DNA of 64,000 nucleotides from Escherichia phage vB_EcoM_Kelasse, in sequence record MW749001.1. The stretch is one strand, 5' to 3'. Positions 3,903 through 50,200 of the stretch are shown one piece after another (within the stretch, counting starts at the first letter, position 1; each line of letters begins with the position of its first letter). The position numbers and the translations under genes are program-made. The notes beneath the pieces are model-generated. The model saw only the letters and a list, made by a program, of their open reading frames with translations, was not told the DNA's origin and made no database searches.

Positions 3903-3916
3903 TCTTTGACGATTTA

Positions 3917-3934
3917 AGGGACCTTCGGGTCCCT
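3917..3934 (+). terminator. stem-loop terminator after gene 23
   Basis: GGGACC-TTCG-GGTCCC followed by T-rich run. Confidence 0.6.
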
Positions 3935-3950
3935 TTAGTTGTTTTTATGG

Positions 3951-3958
3951 TATAAATA
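3951..3958 (+). promoter_or_regulatory. late promoter TATAAATA (gene 24)
   Basis: Exact TATAAATA between gene 23 terminator and gene 24. Confidence 0.65.
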
Positions 3959-3985
3959 AATCATATAAACCAAAAGGAAAGCGCA

Positions 3986-5269
3986 ATGGCTAAAATCAAC
4001 GAACTTCTGCGCGAATCAACCACAACGAATAGCAACTCAATCGGTCGCCCAAATCTCGTTGCTTTGACTCGCGCTACCACTAAATTAATATATTCTGACA
4101 TTGTAGCAACGCAAAGAACTAATCAACCTGTTGCTGCTTTTTATGGTATCAAATACCTTAACCCAGACAATGAATTTACATTTAAAACTGGTGCTACTTA
4201 TGCTGGCGAAGCTGGATATGTAGACCGAGAACAAATCACAGAATTAACAGAAGAGTCTAAATTAACTCTCAATAAAGGCGATTTATTCAAATATAATAAT
4301 ATCGTTTATAAAGTATTAGAAGATACACCATTTGCTGATATTGAAGAAAGCGATTTAGAATTGGCTCTTCAGATTGCAATTGTTCTTTTAAAGGTTCGTC
4401 TATTTTCTGACGCAGCGTCAACAAGCAAATTTGAAAGCTCTGATAGTGAAATTGCGGATGCTAGATTCCAGATTAATAAATGGCAAACCGCAGTTAAATC
4501 TCGCAAACTTAAAACTGGTATCACAGTTGAATTAGCACAAGATTTAGAAGCAAATGGATTCGATGCTCCTAATTTCTTGGAAGATTTGCTTGCAACTGAA
4601 ATGGCAGATGAAATCAATAAAGATATTCTGCAGTCTTTGATTACAGTATCAAAACGTTATAAAGTTACAGGAATTACTGATACTGGATTCATTGATTTGA
4701 GTTATGCATCTGCACCTGAAGCTGGTCGTTCATTATATCGAATGGTATGTGAAATGGTTTCACATATCCAAAAAGAATCAACTTATACAGCAACGTTCTG
4801 TGTTGCTTCAGCTCGTGCTGCTGCGATTCTTGCTGCATCAGGTTGGTTAAAACATAAACCAGAAGATGATAAATATCTTTCACAAAATGCCTATGGGTTT
4901 TTAGCTAATGGTTTACCACTTTATTGCGATACTAACAGCCCATTAGATTATGTAATCGTTGGCGTAGTAGAAAATATCGGTGAAAAAGAAATTGTTGGAT
5001 CAATTTTCTATGCTCCGTATACAGAAGGTCTCGACTTAGATGACCCTGAACATGTAGGTGCATTTAAAGTTGTTGTTGATCCAGAAAGCTTACAGCCGTC
5101 TATCGGTTTATTAGTTAGATATGCTTTATCAGCAAATCCTTATACCGTAGCAAAAGATGAAAAAGAAGCAAGAATAATTGATGGTGGAGACATGGATAAA
5201 ATGGCGGGTCGTTCAGATTTGTCTGTTTTATTAGGTGTTAAATTACCAAAAATTATCATTGATGAATAA
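3986..5269 (+). CDS. 24: capsid vertex protein (gp23 paralog)
   Basis: 427 aa, MAKINELLRESTTTNSNSIGRPNLVALTRATTKLIYSDIVATQRTNQP; TATAAATA promoter upstream. Confidence 0.9.
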   Translation: MAKINELLRESTTTNSNSIGRPNLVALTRATTKLIYSDIVATQRTNQPVAAFYGIKYLNPDNEFTFKTGATYAGEAGYVDREQITELTEESKLTLNKGDLFKYNNIVYKVLEDTPFADIEESDLELALQIAIVLLKVRLFSDAASTSKFESSDSEIADARFQINKWQTAVKSRKLKTGITVELAQDLEANGFDAPNFLEDLLATEMADEINKDILQSLITVSKRYKVTGITDTGFIDLSYASAPEAGRSLYRMVCEMVSHIQKESTYTATFCVASARAAAILAASGWLKHKPEDDKYLSQNAYGFLANGLPLYCDTNSPLDYVIVGVVENIGEKEIVGSIFYAPYTEGLDLDDPEHVGAFKVVVDPESLQPSIGLLVRYALSANPYTVAKDEKEARIIDGGDMDKMAGRSDLSVLLGVKLPKIIIDE

Positions 5270-11738: not shown

Positions 11739-11766
11739 ATTATACCACGTTTATACGTGAAGCATT
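11739..11766 (-). promoter_or_regulatory. MotA-dependent middle promoter (uvsY)
   Basis: Minus strand AATGCTTCA (MotA box) + 13 nt + TATAAT, about 40 nt upstream of uvsY ATG. Confidence 0.55.
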
Positions 11767-12163
11767 ATACTCTGTTACTGGAAGCCAGTTGTAGTTTTAT
11801 CTGCTCAATATCATCAGGGTTATCGATGACTGAAAAGCGTATTTCTACTATCAGAGTATAATCATCATAAACTGGTATTACATTAACTGCTAATTTATCA
11901 ATACGTGGCTCGTAGTTTCTTACTGCGCTTTCAATGTTACGCTCAACAGTATCAGCAGTAAGAGGAGTCATATTCTCAAAAAGCTGATCAGATAAATCGC
12001 ATCCAAATTCTGGGTCAAATGGCCTTGACCCTTTCCTGGTTGTAATAATTCCCAAAAGGCTATTTTTAATTGACCTTAATCCAAGAGATCTGGAAACGTC
12101 TTTGTCCCAATCCATTTTCATTTCTGGGTCAATGTCAGAATAAAGCTTATTAATATTTGCCAT
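11765..12163 (-). CDS. 25: baseplate wedge protein
   Basis: 132 aa [29 protein letters not shown]; coupled to gene 26. Confidence 0.85.
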   Translation of the reverse strand: MANINKLYSDIDPEMKMDWDKDVSRSLGLRSIKNSLLGIITTRKGSRPFDPEFGCDLSDQLFENMTPLTADTVERNIESAVRNYEPRIDKLAVNVIPVYDDYTLIVEIRFSVIDNPDDIEQIKLQLASSNRV

Positions 12164-30853: not shown

Positions 30854-31188
30854 TTCATAATCACCAGATAAGCAGATTTAGCAGTTTCAACACGATAAAT
30901 TTCGTGACGAAGTTTAGTTATACTTTTAATAACAGAACTAATTATATTCTGCCCATCTTTAAAGCGGTTTTTCTTATCAATAAAAATTGCGCCAACCATC
31001 TTTTTGTGAAGCTCAACTGGATACTTCGTCACAATAATAGCATCATATACGGAAGGATGAATACTATTCACCAGAGTGTCATTCATTAAAGTTATTCTAA
31101 TGAACTGAGCTGTTTCAGAGTCAAGCGCTCTATGATCGCCAGTATCATTTTCAAGACAATTATCAATTATATCAGTTAAATTCATCAT
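30850..31188 (-). CDS. hypothetical protein (cd-pseT cluster)
   Basis: 112 aa. Confidence 0.45.
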   Translation of the reverse strand: MMNLTDIIDNCLENDTGDHRALDSETAQFIRITLMNDTLVNSIHPSVYDAIIVTKYPVELHKKMVGAIFIDKKNRFKDGQNIISSVIKSITKLRHEIYRVETAKSAYLVIMK

Positions 31189-39921: not shown

Positions 39922-40238
39922 AAGTCCTCAACTTGAAAATCGTCTTTAAACAATCGGTTAACTATATGAGCTATTATATCACCATGACACGGCTTTGGTT
40001 TACATGTGCATCCTAGCCTCATTCCACGTAAAGGCTCTAAATGTGCTTTAGTTATTTCTCCGGATTTAATTCGACGTATAAAATCTTTTTTGAATAATTC
40101 AATGGCAGCCTCCCGGCTGCCAGCATCTTTACCGACGTAATTTCCCCAAAATGTACCGCGGTGAATATTAACATCAAAGTCGGATTTGTATTTATTCACT
40201 ACCCGGCATAGACGGCCCACGCTGGAATAATTCGTCAT
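39912..40238 (-). CDS. hypothetical protein with Cys/His motif
   Basis: 108 aa; WGN...[12 protein letters not shown] motif. Confidence 0.5.
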
Positions 40239-40467
40239 ATTGTTTTTCCGTTAATACAGTAATATCATAGTAACAGTCAGAAGAAGTTTTAACTGTGGAA
40301 ATTTTATTATCAAAATACTCACGAGTCATTTTATGAGTATAGTATTTTTTACCATAAATGGTAATAGGCTGTTCTGGTCCTGGAACTTCTAACTCGCTTG
40401 GGTTAGGAAGTGTAAAAAGAACGGCACCAGAAGTATCTTTAAATCGTAAAATCATATATCCTCGCAA
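40192..40467 (-). CDS. hypothetical protein
   Basis: 91 aa ORF between td and nrdA. Confidence 0.45.
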
Positions 40468-40475
40468 TAATAAAA

Positions 40476-41336
40476 TTACACCGCCATCTTTCCTTTAATA
40501 GGAGGGTGTGATTCATAGTTGTTAAGAACAAAATTATGCGGCTTTGCGAATTGACTCAACCAAAATACCTGCGATTCTGTGTCCCATTCATCAAATTCAT
40601 CTGGAAATTTTAATTGCAATTCGCATAAATCCATAGGTTCACGACGCAAAATTTCTTTACATTGCTCTACGTGATTCATATAGATATGAGTATTACCACC
40701 AGAAAATATCAAATCTCCGGGAATAAGATTACACATCTTAGCTACAATATGCGTCAAGGCAGCGTACGAGGCAATGTTGAATGGCAAGCCCAAGAAAACA
40801 TCTACACTTCTTTGGTACCACTGCAAATCCAAATAGCCATTACGCACATTAAACTGATAGAACATATGACAAGGCGGTAATGCCATATATTTAAGTTCAG
40901 CTGGATTCCACGCAGAAACAATTTGACGCCTATCATTCGGCAGTTTTTTAATACGATCAACAACTTCTATAATTTGGTCTACACCGCCAAAATCACGCCA
41001 CTGTTTTCCATAAATTGGACCAAGTTCACCACTATGGTATCCTAAATCTTTTGCCTGATTTTCGTAATTTTCATCCCAAACTGTTTTGCCTTGGATTAAC
41101 GAATCGTGTTGAATTAATCGTAAATCATTGACATTTGTGCTTCCCGATAAAAACCATATTAGCTCAGCAATACATGCATTCCAGGCGAGCTTCTTAGTTG
41201 TTACTGCAGGAAAACCTTTGGTTAAATCCCAACGCAATTTAGTACCGAACAAAGCAATTGTTCCTGTGCCTGTTCGGTCATCGGTTTCATAACCATTTTC
41301 AAAAATGTCTTTAATTAAATCTTGGTATTGTTTCAT
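40476..41336 (-). CDS. td: thymidylate synthase (uninterrupted)
   Basis: 286 aa continuous ORF; active-site LPPCH; no intron. Confidence 0.9.
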
Positions 41337-41380
41337 TTAGTACCTTATATAAATTATAATACATTTTATGAAGCTAATAA

Positions 41381-41740
41381 TTAATACGGTTTAGCATCAA
41401 ATTTTCTCTCAATTTCAGGCGTGAAATATAATTCTTTACCGCGTTTGGAAAAACGACCAATAATATGATAATTATTCTCATCAAACGTGATATTACCAAT
41501 ATCCATAGCTTTCAACCAAATATCGATATTTCTATCTAGTTTTATATCAAAATTCCAATACGGAGAACTATTACCAAAAATACTACAAGCGGATTCAGTG
41601 AAACAACTGCTATAAATCTTGTCTTTAGGAACTACTAATTGATAGACGCCTTTAATAAACTGAGGACCCTGCCATTTTGGTTGTTTCGCGTCTTTTTCTA
41701 ATAGAATAGGGTAATAATTAAAATTCATATTTTCCGCCAC
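41381..41740 (-). CDS. hypothetical protein inserted between frd and td
   Basis: 119 aa ORF with GTG at 41740; more likely starts at ATG 41728 (MNFNYYPILLEKDAKQPKW, 115 aa); sits 8-20 nt downstream of frd stop. Confidence 0.5.
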   Translation of the reverse strand: MAENMNFNYYPILLEKDAKQPKWQGPQFIKGVYQLVVPKDKIYSSCFTESACSIFGNSSPYWNFDIKLDRNIDIWLKAMDIGNITFDENNYHIIGRFSKRGKELYFTPEIERKFDAKPY

Positions 41741-41748
41741 GTGTTATT

Positions 41749-42575
<827 letters not shown>

Positions 42576-42586
42576 ATTATCTCCTA

Positions 42587-42919
42587 TTAAAAAGGATCAG
42601 GAATATATCCGCTAGCTTTAATCATTTTAATTAACGTTAGCATTCCTTTATTAACCGCTAGTGAGATTTCATCAAAAACTTCATCACTAAAAAGTTCTAA
42701 CACACCCTTCTGAACTTTTAATTTACAGCCAACAATTTCGTCATCGCCTATAGTAAATTCATTACCACCAATTCCTCCGAAAAACTTAATTACACCAGTT
42801 AACTGTCTTCCACGAGAATATGGGTCGTGTGATAAAGTAATATGAGTCACCCCGGGTACAGTTTTAAATTGGCAGCGAATATTTACTTGAGCAATTCCAG
42901 TTACATGAATGTCAGACAT
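42587..42919 (-). CDS. hypothetical protein
   Basis: 110 aa. Confidence 0.45.
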   Translation of the reverse strand: MSDIHVTGIAQVNIRCQFKTVPGVTHITLSHDPYSRGRQLTGVIKFFGGIGGNEFTIGDDEIVGCKLKVQKGVLELFSDEVFDEISLAVNKGMLTLIKMIKASGYIPDPF

Positions 42920-42929
42920 AATATTTTCC

Positions 42930-43172
42930 TCAAACAGACTTTTTCACAATTTTCCAATCAGCTTTAAACTGCTCGACGTCAGAATGGTAAATCCAAAATC
43001 CTGCGCTTTCTCCGTCTTCATAAAGAGGACATCCATCGCATTCATCTTCCCATCCCATATCACGTAAAAGATGTTCAGCTTTTTCAACAAGTTCAGAATC
43101 TTTACCGATGATATTAAAATACCATTTACCTCTAACTTCCGAATCTTTGATGCTCTGACGTTGTAATCTCAT
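42930..43172 (-). CDS. hypothetical protein
   Basis: 80 aa; GAGGAG SD; early promoter upstream. Confidence 0.45.
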   Translation of the reverse strand: MRLQRQSIKDSEVRGKWYFNIIGKDSELVEKAEHLLRDMGWEDECDGCPLYEDGESAGFWIYHSDVEQFKADWKIVKKSV

Positions 43173-47289: not shown

Positions 47290-50200
47290 ATGGCCGAGAT
47301 TAAAAGAAAGTTCAGAGCAGAAGATGGTCTGGACGCAGGTGGTGATAAAATAATCAACGTAGCTTTAGCTGATCGTGCCGTAGGAACTGACGGTGTTAAC
47401 GTTGATTACTTAATTCAAGAAAACACAGTTCAACAATACGATCCAACTCGTGGATATTTAAAAGATTTTGTAATCATTTATGATAACCGCTTTTGGGCTG
47501 CTATAAATGATATTCCAAAACCGGCAGGAGCTTTTAATAGCGGACGCTGGAGAGCATTACGTACCGATGCTAACTGGATTACGGTTTCATCTGGTTCATA
47601 TCAATTAAAATCTGGTGAAGCTATTTCGGTTAACACCGCAGCTGGTAATGATATTACATTTACTTTACCATCTACCCCAATTGATGGTGATACTATCGTT
47701 CTCCAAGATATTGGAGGAAAACCCGGAGTTAACCAAGTTTTAATTGTAGCTCCAGTGCAAAGTATTGTAAACTTTAGAGGTGAACAAGTACGTTCAGTAC
47801 TAATGACTCATCCAAAGTCACAGCTAGTTTTAATTTTTAGTAATCGTCTGTGGCAAATGTATGTAGCTGATTATAGTAGAGAAGCGGTAATTGTAACACC
47901 AGCAAGTCTCTATCAGGCGCAATCTAATGATTTTATCGTACGTAGATTTACTTCTGCTGCACCGATAAATATTAAACTTCCAAGATTTGCTAATCACGGC
48001 GATATTATTAATTTCGTCGATTTGGATAAATTAAACCCTCTTTATCATACAATTGTTACGACATACGATGAAACGACATCAGTACAAGAAGATGGAACTC
48101 ATTCCATTGAAGGCCGTACATCGATTGATGGCTTTTTAATGTATGATGATAACGAAAAATTATGGAGACTGTTTGACGGGGACAGTAAAGCACGTTTACG
48201 TATCATAACGACTAATTCAAACATTCGTCCAAACGAAGAAGTTATGGTATTTGGTGCGAATAACGGAACAATTCAAACAATTGAGCTTCAGCTTCCAACT
48301 AATATTTCTGTTGGTGATACTGTTAAAATTTCCATGAATTACATGAGAAAAGGACAAACAGTTAAAATCAAAGCTGCCGGTGAAGATAAAATTGCTTCTT
48401 CAGTTCAATTGCTGCAATTCCCAAAACGTTCAGAGTATCCGCCTGAAGCTGAGTGGGTTACAGTTCAAGAATTAGTTTTTAACGGTGAAACTAATTATGT
48501 TCCAGTTTTACAACTTGCTTATATAGAAGATTCTGATGGAAAATACTGGGTTGTGCAACAAAATGTTCCAACCGTAGAAAGAGTAGACTCTTTAAATGAT
48601 TCTACTAGAGCGAGATTAGGCGTAATAGCTTTAGCTACACAAGCTCAAGCTAATGTCGATTTAGAAAATTCTCCACAAAAAGAATTAGCAATTACTCCAG
48701 AAACATTAGCTAACCGTACTGCTACTGAAACTCGTAGAGGTATCGCAAGAATAGCAACTACTGCTCAAGTGAATCAGAACACCACATTCTCTTTTGCTGA
48801 TGACCTTATCATCACTCCTAAAAAGCTGAATGAAAGAACTGCTACAGAAACTCGCAGAGGTGTCGCAGAAATTGCTACACAACAGGAAACTAATACAGGT
48901 ACTGATGATACAACCATCATTACTCCTAAAAAGCTTCAAGCTCGTCAAGGTTCTGAATCATTATCTGGTATTGTAACTTTTGTATCTACTGCAGGTGCTA
49001 CTCCAGCTTCTAGCCGTGAATTAAATGGTACGAATGTTTATAATAAAAACACTAATAATTTAGTTGTTTCGCCAAAAGCTTTGGATCAGTATAAAGCTAC
49101 TCCAACGCAGCAAGGTGCAGTAATTTTAGCAGTTGAAAGTGAAGTAATTGCTGGACAAAGCCAAGAAGGATGGGCAAATGCGGTTGTAACGCCAGAAACG
49201 TTACATAAAAAGACATCAACTGATGGAAGAATTGGTTTAATTGAAATTGCTACGCAAAGTGAAGTTAATACAGGAACTGATTATACTCGTGCAGTCACTC
49301 CTAAAACTTTAAATGACCGTAGAGCAACTGAAAGTTTAAGTGGTATAGCTGAAATTGCTACACAAGTTGAATTCGACGCAGGCGTCGACGATACTCGTAT
49401 CTCTACACCATTAAAAATTAAAACCAGATTTAATAGTACTGATCGTACTTCTGTTGTTGCTCTATCTGGATTAGTTGAATCAGGAACTCTCTGGGACCAT
49501 TATACCCTTAATATTCTTGAAGCAAATGAGACGCAACGTGGTACACTTCGTGTAGCTACACAGGTCGAAGCTGCTGCAGGAACATTAGATAATGTTTTAA
49601 TAACTCCTAAAAAACTTTTAGGTACTAAATCTACTGAAGCACAGGAAGGTGTTATTAAAGTTGCAACCCAGTCTGAAACTGTGACTGGAACGTCAGCAAA
49701 TACTGCTGTATCTCCAAAAAATTTAAAATGGATTGTACAGAGTGAACCTACTTGGGCAGCTACTACTGCGATAAGAGGCTTTGTTAAAACTTCATCTGGT
49801 TCAATTACATTCGTTGGTAATGATACAGTCGGTTCTACCCAAGATTTAGAACTGTATGAGAAAAATAGCTATGCAGTATCACCATATGAATTAAACCGTG
49901 TATTAGCAAATTATTTACCGTTAAAAGCAAAAGCTGCTGATACAAATTTATTGGATGGTCTAGATTCATCTCAATTCATTCGTAGGGATATTGCACAGAC
50001 AGTTAATGGTTCACTAACCTTAACTCAACAAACGAATCTGAGTGCCCCTCTTGTATCATCTAGTACTGCTACGTTTGGTGGTTCAGTTTCGGCAAATAGT
50101 ACATTAACTATTTCTAATACTGGAACAGCAACTCGTCTGATTTTTGAAAAAGGACCTCAAACTGGAACTAACCCAGCACAGACGATGACTATCAGAGTAT

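Follow-up and report, generated by a model that had tools for sequence, protein, structure and literature searches.

PHROG 1928, a conserved hypothetical gene between the dihydrofolate reductase and thymidylate synthase genes of T4-like phages

Introduction

In T4, the genes for dihydrofolate reductase (frd) and thymidylate synthase (td) directly overlap. In Escherichia phage vB_EcoM_Kelasse (MW749001.1), an additional small open reading frame lies between the two. What is this gene, and is it a recent acquisition of this phage? A preliminary description of the 64,000-nucleotide stretch analysed here (hereafter, the window) considered it to be an acquired accessory gene in a conserved nucleotide-metabolism operon, possibly an anti-defence or host-takeover factor, followed by a MotA-box-like element. 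The gene, denoted ORF1 below, is already known: it is catalogued as PHROG 1928 and appears, labelled as a hypothetical protein, in the annotation of hundreds of T-even genomes. A search of the literature on RB32ORF229c, PHROG 1928, the frd-td junction and the accessory or anti-defence genes of T-even phages found nothing on the gene.

Results

Layout of the frd-td junction

The window comes from a Tequatrovirus of the T2/RB type, and its frd-to-td segment (40476-42330) is 98.8% identical to that of Shigella phage ESh31. According to the ORF list and the sequence, frd, ORF1 and td are all encoded on the minus strand. The frd gene (41749-42330, minus strand; 193 aa, ending in VYK-TGA) was identified from the ORF list, the annotation of relatives and 94% nucleotide identity to T4 frd, and td (40476-41336, minus strand; 286 aa, from the ORF list) has no intron. 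ORF1 (41381-41728, minus strand), an RB32ORF229c-like member of PHROG 1928, encodes 115 aa from the ATG at 41728 to the TAA at 41381-41383; a longer reading, from a GTG, yields 119 aa (41381-41740, minus strand). The ATG is located 20 nt, and the GTG 8 nt, from the frd stop codon. The previously reported coordinates, spacing of 8-20 nt after frd and translation (MAENMNFNYYPILLEKDAKQPKWQGPQFIKGVYQ...) all match the sequence.

Several short elements accompany these genes, all on the minus strand. A Shine-Dalgarno-like GGCGGA (41733-41738) precedes the ORF1 ATG by 4 nt, and the td Shine-Dalgarno sequence AAGGT is at 41342-41346. A mini-ORF, ATG-AAA-TAA (41744-41752), shares the reading frame of ORF1 and has an ATG that overlaps with the stop codon of frd (ATGA). 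No second PHROG 1928 copy was detected elsewhere in the 64-kb window, and an Rfam scan of positions 40000-43000 produced just one spurious sub-threshold match.

The annotation of the locus in GenBank is uneven: ORF1 is unannotated in the T2 record LC348380, as are both frd and td in KJ477685 (T4 strain 147).

Coding status and start codon

ORF1 is a real protein-coding gene that is subject to strong purifying selection, with dN/dS of about 0.04. The window and T2 versions differ by 12 synonymous and no non-synonymous substitutions, and the comparison with Shf125875 gives 30 synonymous and 9 non-synonymous ones. Pairwise dN/dS values are 0.03-0.05 within Tequatrovirus/Mosigvirus and 0.11-0.13 against the relatives with 63-66% identity. 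The PHROG 1928 profile aligns with ORF1 over almost its entire length (residues 8-115 against profile positions 2-125 of 126; E 9.5e-36). Rapid decay among close relatives, which would speak against a functional gene, is not what we observe, the substitutions being overwhelmingly synonymous. A chance reading frame in a non-coding spacer would be consistent with the 20 nt separating ORF1 from frd and with its modest Shine-Dalgarno sequence, and with nothing further; this reading is excluded because of the substitution pattern, and with the profile matches across genera and the confident fold prediction for ORF1 also standing against it, we consider its probability negligible.

Judging from the alignment of relatives, the ATG at 41728 is the real, conserved start of ORF1 because, at the position of the upstream GTG, Shf125875 and Phaginator have CTG or GCG. 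Five of the six relatives compared retain both this ATG and the Shine-Dalgarno-like sequence GGCGGAAAAT (ggcggaaaat) in front of it; the exception is RB33, in which the sequence reads GCCGGAAAAT (gccggaaaat) and the Shine-Dalgarno-like hexamer is broken. Most GenBank records annotate the 348-nt version of ORF1.

Comparison with T4

The claim that frd and td directly overlap in T4 and that the ORF is absent there holds true: in KJ477685, the two genes overlap as ATGA (TATAAATGAAACAATACC) without ORF1 between them, and 416 bp of the window sequence are missing. Finding the same ORF between frd and td in T4 itself would have spoken against an extra gene at this position; T4 has no ORF1. In the blastn comparison of the window with T4, coding positions 1-584 and 992-1542 both cover T4 positions 1076-1084, that is, the two flank alignments have nine T4 bases in common. 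Because of these shared bases, the segment missing in T4 can be delimited as the 416 bp bounded in the window by two copies of the 9-nt direct repeat TAAATGAAA, the upstream one at 41747-41755 and the downstream one, which includes the td start ATG AAA, at 41331-41339 (both on the minus strand). The flanking genes of T4 are 94-96% identical to those of the window at the nucleotide level, and the end of frd (TATAAATGA) and the start of td (ATGAAACAATACC) are the same in both genomes. The difference is that T4 lacks ORF1 together with the promoter-like block (416 bp in total) and carries the td intron with I-TevI, whereas in the window the situation is the opposite.

Aligned across relatives, the frd-td junction falls into several haplotypes, with that of T4 corresponding to the window sequence without these 416 bp. 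A deletion between the TAAATGAAA repeats would be the simplest way to arrive at the T4 junction and would place td exactly at the ATGA overlap with frd. The same frd/td ATGA overlap is found in the typical Mosigvirus p000v. By sequence comparison, it is T4 that is the atypical genome at the frd-td locus.

The td genes of T4, PST, RB6, IME340 and others contain a group I intron of about 1 kb with I-TevI, and td of the window is uninterrupted. A link between ORF1 and the td intron or I-TevI was considered and discarded, as the relatives include genomes with both ORF1 and the intron, with either one alone and with neither.

Distribution and synteny of PHROG 1928

A tblastn search with the ORF1 protein retrieved 580 phage records. 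In about 362 of these, the match is at least 90% identical; they are Tequatrovirus, including T2, RB3, RB14, RB33, RB51, PST and Shfl2, and a few Mosigvirus. In 218 records, the identity is below 60%, and these are phages of Klebsiella, Enterobacter, Salmonella, Citrobacter, Serratia, Erwinia and other hosts. Among the records matched by the junction DNA, 354 of 518 (roughly 69%) contain ORF1. The window protein shares 100% identity with its counterpart in phage Ozark and 99.2% with the T2 protein; the gene annotated as RB32ORF229c in T2, RB3, RB14, RB32, RB33, RB51, PST, Shfl2 and others is the same gene, with 97-100% amino acid identity and in the same position.

Outside these close relatives, we inspected one genome per genus, namely, CIP9 (Kanagawavirus), Mineola (Jiaodavirus), CGG4-1 (Gelderlandvirus), Moon (Moonvirus), CHI14 (Winklervirus), EcS1 (Kagamiyamavirus) and R3_1 (Marfavirus), along with two uncultured contigs. 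In all these genomes, an ORF1 homolog directly follows frd, and in all seven genera and both contigs, its start overlaps or abuts the frd stop codon; usually, the homologs in other genera overlap the td start as well. Altogether, at least nine Tevenvirinae lineages besides that of the window have homologs in the frd-td slot, with the diverged copies at this position in other Tevenvirinae genera showing 16-46% identity. The most divergent family members (16-25% identity) are located between the dihydrofolate reductase (DHFR) and thymidylate synthase genes on T4-like contigs in four of the five cases looked up; the fifth is at a contig end, beside an NMN-transporter gene. The slot is thus ancient, with even homologs of 16-25% identity in the same position.

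The family is small. A word-indexed protein search found just 3 and later 10 relatives, and the exhaustive HMM search, with 40 cluster representatives among 1.84 billion proteins, confirmed this. All 40 representatives are single-domain proteins of 37-139 aa (95-139 aa if two short fragments are set aside), and none of them contains a domain fusion that could hint at function. PHROG 1928 is confined to T4-like phages (Tevenvirinae) of Enterobacterales, and almost every member inspected belongs to the frd-td operon. In the genomes compared, the copy number is one in T2-type Tequatroviruses and zero in T4-type phages and typical Mosigvirus; the RB69-like phages also lack the gene.

Tandem paralogs and neighbouring small genes

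In most genera other than Tequatrovirus, the first ORF is followed by a second one, of 113-125 aa. The two share an N-terminal QKKW, HG(I/V)Y and a C-terminal GRFxKxGxE(I)xF, both match PHROG 1928, and the hhalign comparison of the ORF1 profile with the ORF2 profile yields a probability of 99.4% (E 5e-22), so that these are tandem paralogs. Such tandems are present in Kanagawavirus, Moonvirus, Winklervirus, Gelderlandvirus, Kagamiyamavirus and Marfavirus, where, as in the window, the ORF1 ortholog comes right after frd. The identity of these orthologs to the window protein is 27-46%, and that of the uncultured Kanagawavirus-like contigs is 63-66%. The tandem genera differ from the window in that they carry the second paralog, with a PTIxxY/NP insertion, whereas the window contains only the first, and in that ORF1 overlaps frd instead of starting 20 nt past the frd stop codon, as it does in the window.

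In some lineages, a third gene, absent in the window and encoding a 69-aa protein of PHROG 9550, is located between the second paralog and td (contig L010, 4670-4879; L002, 2188-2394; L008, 2148-2354). On the very divergent T4-like contig L019, a 183-aa ORF (3905-4456) immediately upstream of td shows a faint Pfam match to tRNA-synt_2 (OB-containing aminoacyl-tRNA synthetases); it lies in the same frd-td interval in which the PHROG 1928 members are found.

Loss, gain and recombination at the locus

The mini-ORF at the end of frd bears on the history of the junction. The sequence at this place, ATGAAATAACAC, matches the td start (ATGAAACAATAC) in 10 of 12 positions, and the mini-ORF is conserved in all T2-type junctions; in other genera, ORF1 starts at or before the frd stop codon. 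The mini-ORF might be a relic of either an older, frd-coupled start of ORF1 that a stop codon has since closed or a td start. Being td-like and yet in the reading frame of ORF1, it would be expected as much from a deletion in T4 as from a re-insertion in the T2-type phages. It could also affect ribosome re-initiation at ORF1.

The ORF1 tree does not match the Frd tree. The window ORF1 is closest (63-66%) to those of the two uncultured Kanagawavirus-like contigs, the Frd of which are only 49% identical to the window Frd, and the window Frd is closest (54-59%) to those of Winklervirus and Kagamiyamavirus. Because of this discordance, recombination with a Kanagawavirus-like phage may have brought ORF1 back into Tequatrovirus or replaced the copy there. 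In the sister genus, Mosigvirus, ORF1 is usually missing. Those Mosigvirus that possess it, Shf125875 (L013) and PHB12 (L014), combine Tequatrovirus-type frd and ORF1 (86-89% nucleotide identity to the window) with Mosigvirus-type td (77%); for comparison, frd of the window and frd of Mosigvirus p000v are 65% identical. This combination indicates that recombination between the genera took place in these two phages, with a breakpoint close to the ORF1/td boundary, and on the basis of such comparisons, the frd-td locus is clearly a recombination mosaic, or hotspot, with several haplotypes.

Two extra A's precede the frd stop codon in Shf125875 (L013 880-918) and Phaginator (L015 880-915), with AAAAATG in place of AAATG, and therefore Frd is extended by 11 residues and frd overlaps ORF1. 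The extension ends in EF, as does the Frd C-terminus of the uncultured Kanagawavirus-like contig L011 (...VYGEKREF); that of the other such contig, L010, ends in ...VYGEKR.

Whichever the direction of the indel, ORF1 is not an acquisition peculiar to this phage. The initial view of an acquired accessory gene thus has to be given up as a trait of vB_EcoM_Kelasse, given that the same slot is filled in at least nine other lineages; what survives of it is the possible re-acquisition to which the conflict between the ORF1 and Frd trees points.

The spacer between ORF1 and td

The ORF1-td spacer comes in two forms, a long one of 44-45 nt in the window, T2, RB33 and FriedrichMiescher, and a short one of 13-15 nt (TTATATAGGTGTTAA) in PHB12, Phaginator and Shf125875, where the td Shine-Dalgarno sequence is kept as AGGT. 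The difference is a 28-nt block, TTATTAGCTTCATAAAATGTATTATAAT (41353-41380 in the window, minus strand), which is present in some ORF1 carriers and absent in others. Within this block, the MotA-like box TTAGCTTCA (41369-41377) is followed, 10 nt on, by TATAAT (41353-41358). The box departs from the MotA consensus (A/T)(A/T)TGCTT(T/C)A by one mismatch, A for T before GCTT.

For comparison, three middle-promoter-like sites with the pattern (A/T/C)nnGCTT(C/T)A, N13, TATAAT are found in the window (11743-11767, 30945-30969 and 49503-49527, all on the minus strand); their boxes, ATTTGCTTCA, TAATGCTTCA and AACCGCTTTA, are each followed by N13 and then TATAAT, and, given this match, the sites are probably genuine MotA-dependent promoters. 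In the ORF1-td spacer, TATAAT is 3 bp closer to the box than in these comparators. Middle promoters have the box centred near -30, about 12-14 nt ahead of a TAnnnT -10 element, and only the weaker TAATTT, at 12 nt, fits this spacing. The relaxed MotA-type pattern occurs 14 times in the window, with 7.4 occurrences expected by chance, and a sigma-70 promoter scan found none between ORF1 and td. The resemblance to a T4 MotA/AsiA middle promoter consists in a GCTTCA core upstream of TAnnnT, ahead of a prereplicative gene; the box (TAGCTTCA) differs in being off the consensus, and the spacing to TATAAT is 10 nt rather than 13 nt. That the indel spans exactly the box, the spacer and the hexamer is suggestive of a candidate promoter module. 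Hence the MotA-like element proposed previously is there as a box followed by TATAAT between the ORF and td, but the box and the spacing are off the consensus, and the block is missing in some ORF1 carriers.

The ORF1 protein

ORF1 encodes a mildly basic, aromatic-rich protein of about 13 kDa, and PHROG 1928 proteins in general are aromatic-rich, mostly with a pI of 7-9.5. The family motifs are an N-terminal LLxxDxxQxKW, HG(I/V)Y and a C-terminal hairpin GRFxKxGxxxxFxP, to which correspond LLEKDAKQPKW, KGVY and IGRFSKRGKELYFTP in the window protein; together with the full-length profile match and the position between the DHFR and thymidylate synthase genes, these motifs identify the window ORF1 as a member of PHROG 1928. 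Across 44 members, Q16, W19, G27, Y29, G91, F93, K95, G97 and F102 are invariant or nearly so, and W19, G91, K95 and G97 are fully invariant; the conservation of R92 is limited to the ORF1 subfamily and does not extend to the family as a whole. Among the 44 sequences, there is no conserved Asp, Glu or His. From this pattern and the structural model, we infer that ORF1 is a non-enzymatic binding module rather than a metal-dependent enzyme.

The AlphaFold2 model of ORF1 has a pLDDT of 81 with 11 sequences, and a pLDDT of 91.4 and pTM of 0.85 with 44. It comprises strands at residues 6-12, 27-34, 38-40, 48-50, 62-64, 80-82, 86-96 and 99-104 and a helix at 68-76. The protein is thus predicted to adopt a small beta-barrel-like domain with one helix. 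An OB-fold, taken as a five-stranded closed beta-barrel with a helix between strands 3 and 4, is only weakly resembled; the known systems set beside ORF1 here were the OB-fold nucleic-acid-binding domains of RPA/Teb1, SSB, S1, HIN and the RecO N-terminal domain.

The absence of a recognisable motif noted in the preliminary description was borne out by the homology searches: scans of ORF1 and its paralog against Pfam, NCBIfam and PADLOC yielded no family (Pfam at E<=10, NCBIfam at E<=1), and a sequence-based profile search of PDB returned only noise, the best hit being an ABC ATPase with E 0.048. The homology searches and structure prediction suggested in that description lead to PHROG 1928, which is catalogued under "unknown function", and to the beta-barrel-like model. 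All matches in a viral structure library are uncharacterised proteins of T4-like phages, and the model has no convincing structural neighbour in PDB. Because the model is confident and has no such neighbour, ORF1 may represent a new small binding fold.

Homing endonuclease labels and other annotations

In the BASEL phages and in Klebsiella phage ValerieMcCarty04, the ORF1 gene is labelled "putative homing endonuclease". According to the BASEL methods, such elements were identified from comparative genome alignments, so the label in these phages would reflect the insertion polymorphism rather than homology. A homing endonuclease gene or its remnant, that is, a selfish mobile insert, would be compatible with the presence/absence polymorphism between conserved genes, with the flanking 9-nt direct repeat and with the labels in several GenBank records. 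Like the free-standing homing endonucleases of T-even phages (seg, mob, hef), ORF1 is an optional ORF between conserved genes that varies among close relatives, but it is half their size, contains no nuclease domain or catalytic residue, is deeply syntenic and is tandemly duplicated. No GIY-YIG, HNH, LAGLIDADG, PD-(D/E)XK or EDxHD domain was detected among the Pfam, NCBIfam and PDB sequence matches or the top fold neighbours. For these reasons, we reject the homing endonuclease as an identity for ORF1, and such an origin is very improbable. The present analysis corrects these labels.

Two further annotations, "glucose-1-phosphate adenylyltransferase" in pSe_SNUABM_01 (MN580668) and "dihydrofolate reductase" in JLBYU22 (OK272484), are plain errors.

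Discussion

ORF1 is an already catalogued gene that most T4-like phages, including T2, carry, and therefore is not a new acquisition of vB_EcoM_Kelasse; we are highly confident that it is an ancient, conserved hypothetical gene. Its function is a matter of more tentative argument. The reading we prefer is that ORF1 acts as a dispensable accessory partner of phage thymidylate and dNTP synthesis, with a role outside defence. Translational coupling would ensure its production in a fixed ratio with Frd and Td, and the protein would either bind these enzymes or bind nucleic acid through an OB-like face, so as to tether or regulate them and link them to replication. In T4, gp32 has been proposed to link the dNTP synthetase complex to replication. 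Taken by itself, the accessory-partner mechanism is a tentative suggestion, with the odds leaning against it; the whole explanation, joining an ancient conserved operon gene, a binding module and this mechanism, is plausible, although we place it somewhat short of an even chance. A bolder and rather improbable version would have PHROG 1928 as a fold-novel, OB-like family dedicated to the phage thymidylate cycle, in which the single copy or the paralog heterodimer binds DHFR and/or thymidylate synthase, or tethers them to nucleic acid, and so serves as an additional subunit of the dNTP-synthesising complex of the T4 type, one that T4 itself would have lost.

Two other functional readings have to be weighed against the accessory partner. 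It is possible, if doubtful, that ORF1 is a conserved protein with a function independent of its neighbours, such as a regulator or a replication or transcription accessory, that is kept in place by genomic inertia. The small T4 ORFs frd.1-3 and nrdA.1/2 are syntenic without a known link to the neighbouring enzymes, which sets a precedent; furthermore, the gene is dispensable in T4, and ORF1 does not co-evolve with Frd. Inertia accounts poorly, however, for the overlap with the neighbours on both sides in most genera and for the retention of both tandem paralogs in exactly the frd-td slot.

The anti-defence or host-takeover role, that is, a small early inhibitor of a host immune or metabolic protein, which was suggested in the preliminary description, appears unlikely. 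ORF1 is small and, by analogy with the T4 frd-td operon, probably prereplicative; it is dispensable, being absent in T4 and typical Mosigvirus and present in about 69% of the Tequatrovirus-type records; it moves by recombination between Tequatrovirus and Mosigvirus, with a tree incongruent with that of Frd; its sequence changes faster from genus to genus than those of Frd and Td; and no housekeeping function is recognisable in it. All these features would suit a counter-defence gene, but the retention of the same operon slot across very divergent genera and the within-genus dN/dS of about 0.04, from which fast-evolving counter-defence genes usually differ, do not, and neither does the translational coupling to metabolic genes. 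Moreover, the viral structure search revealed no similarity to a characterised protein, and ORF1 is not acidic and is therefore unlike a DNA mimic. Papers on phage anti-defence and accessory genes, consulted for frd and td, make no mention of thymidylate or dihydrofolate. The suggestion is thus left without supporting evidence, with deep synteny and low dN/dS contrary to it. If it nevertheless proved true, the presence or absence of ORF1 would help explain the host-range differences between T2-type and T4-type phages.

As a genome feature, ORF1 is ordinary, and the finding carries little weight as it stands. PHROG 1928 has remained unstudied because T4, the reference of the group, is atypical at this locus; if an extra subunit of the dNTP complex was indeed lost by T4, this loss would explain why decades of work on T4 missed the family. 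If ORF1 turned out to act against host defence, its stability would be exceptional for such a factor, and should it be a partner of the enzymes of thymidylate synthesis, it would be a new component of the classic dNTP synthetase complex.
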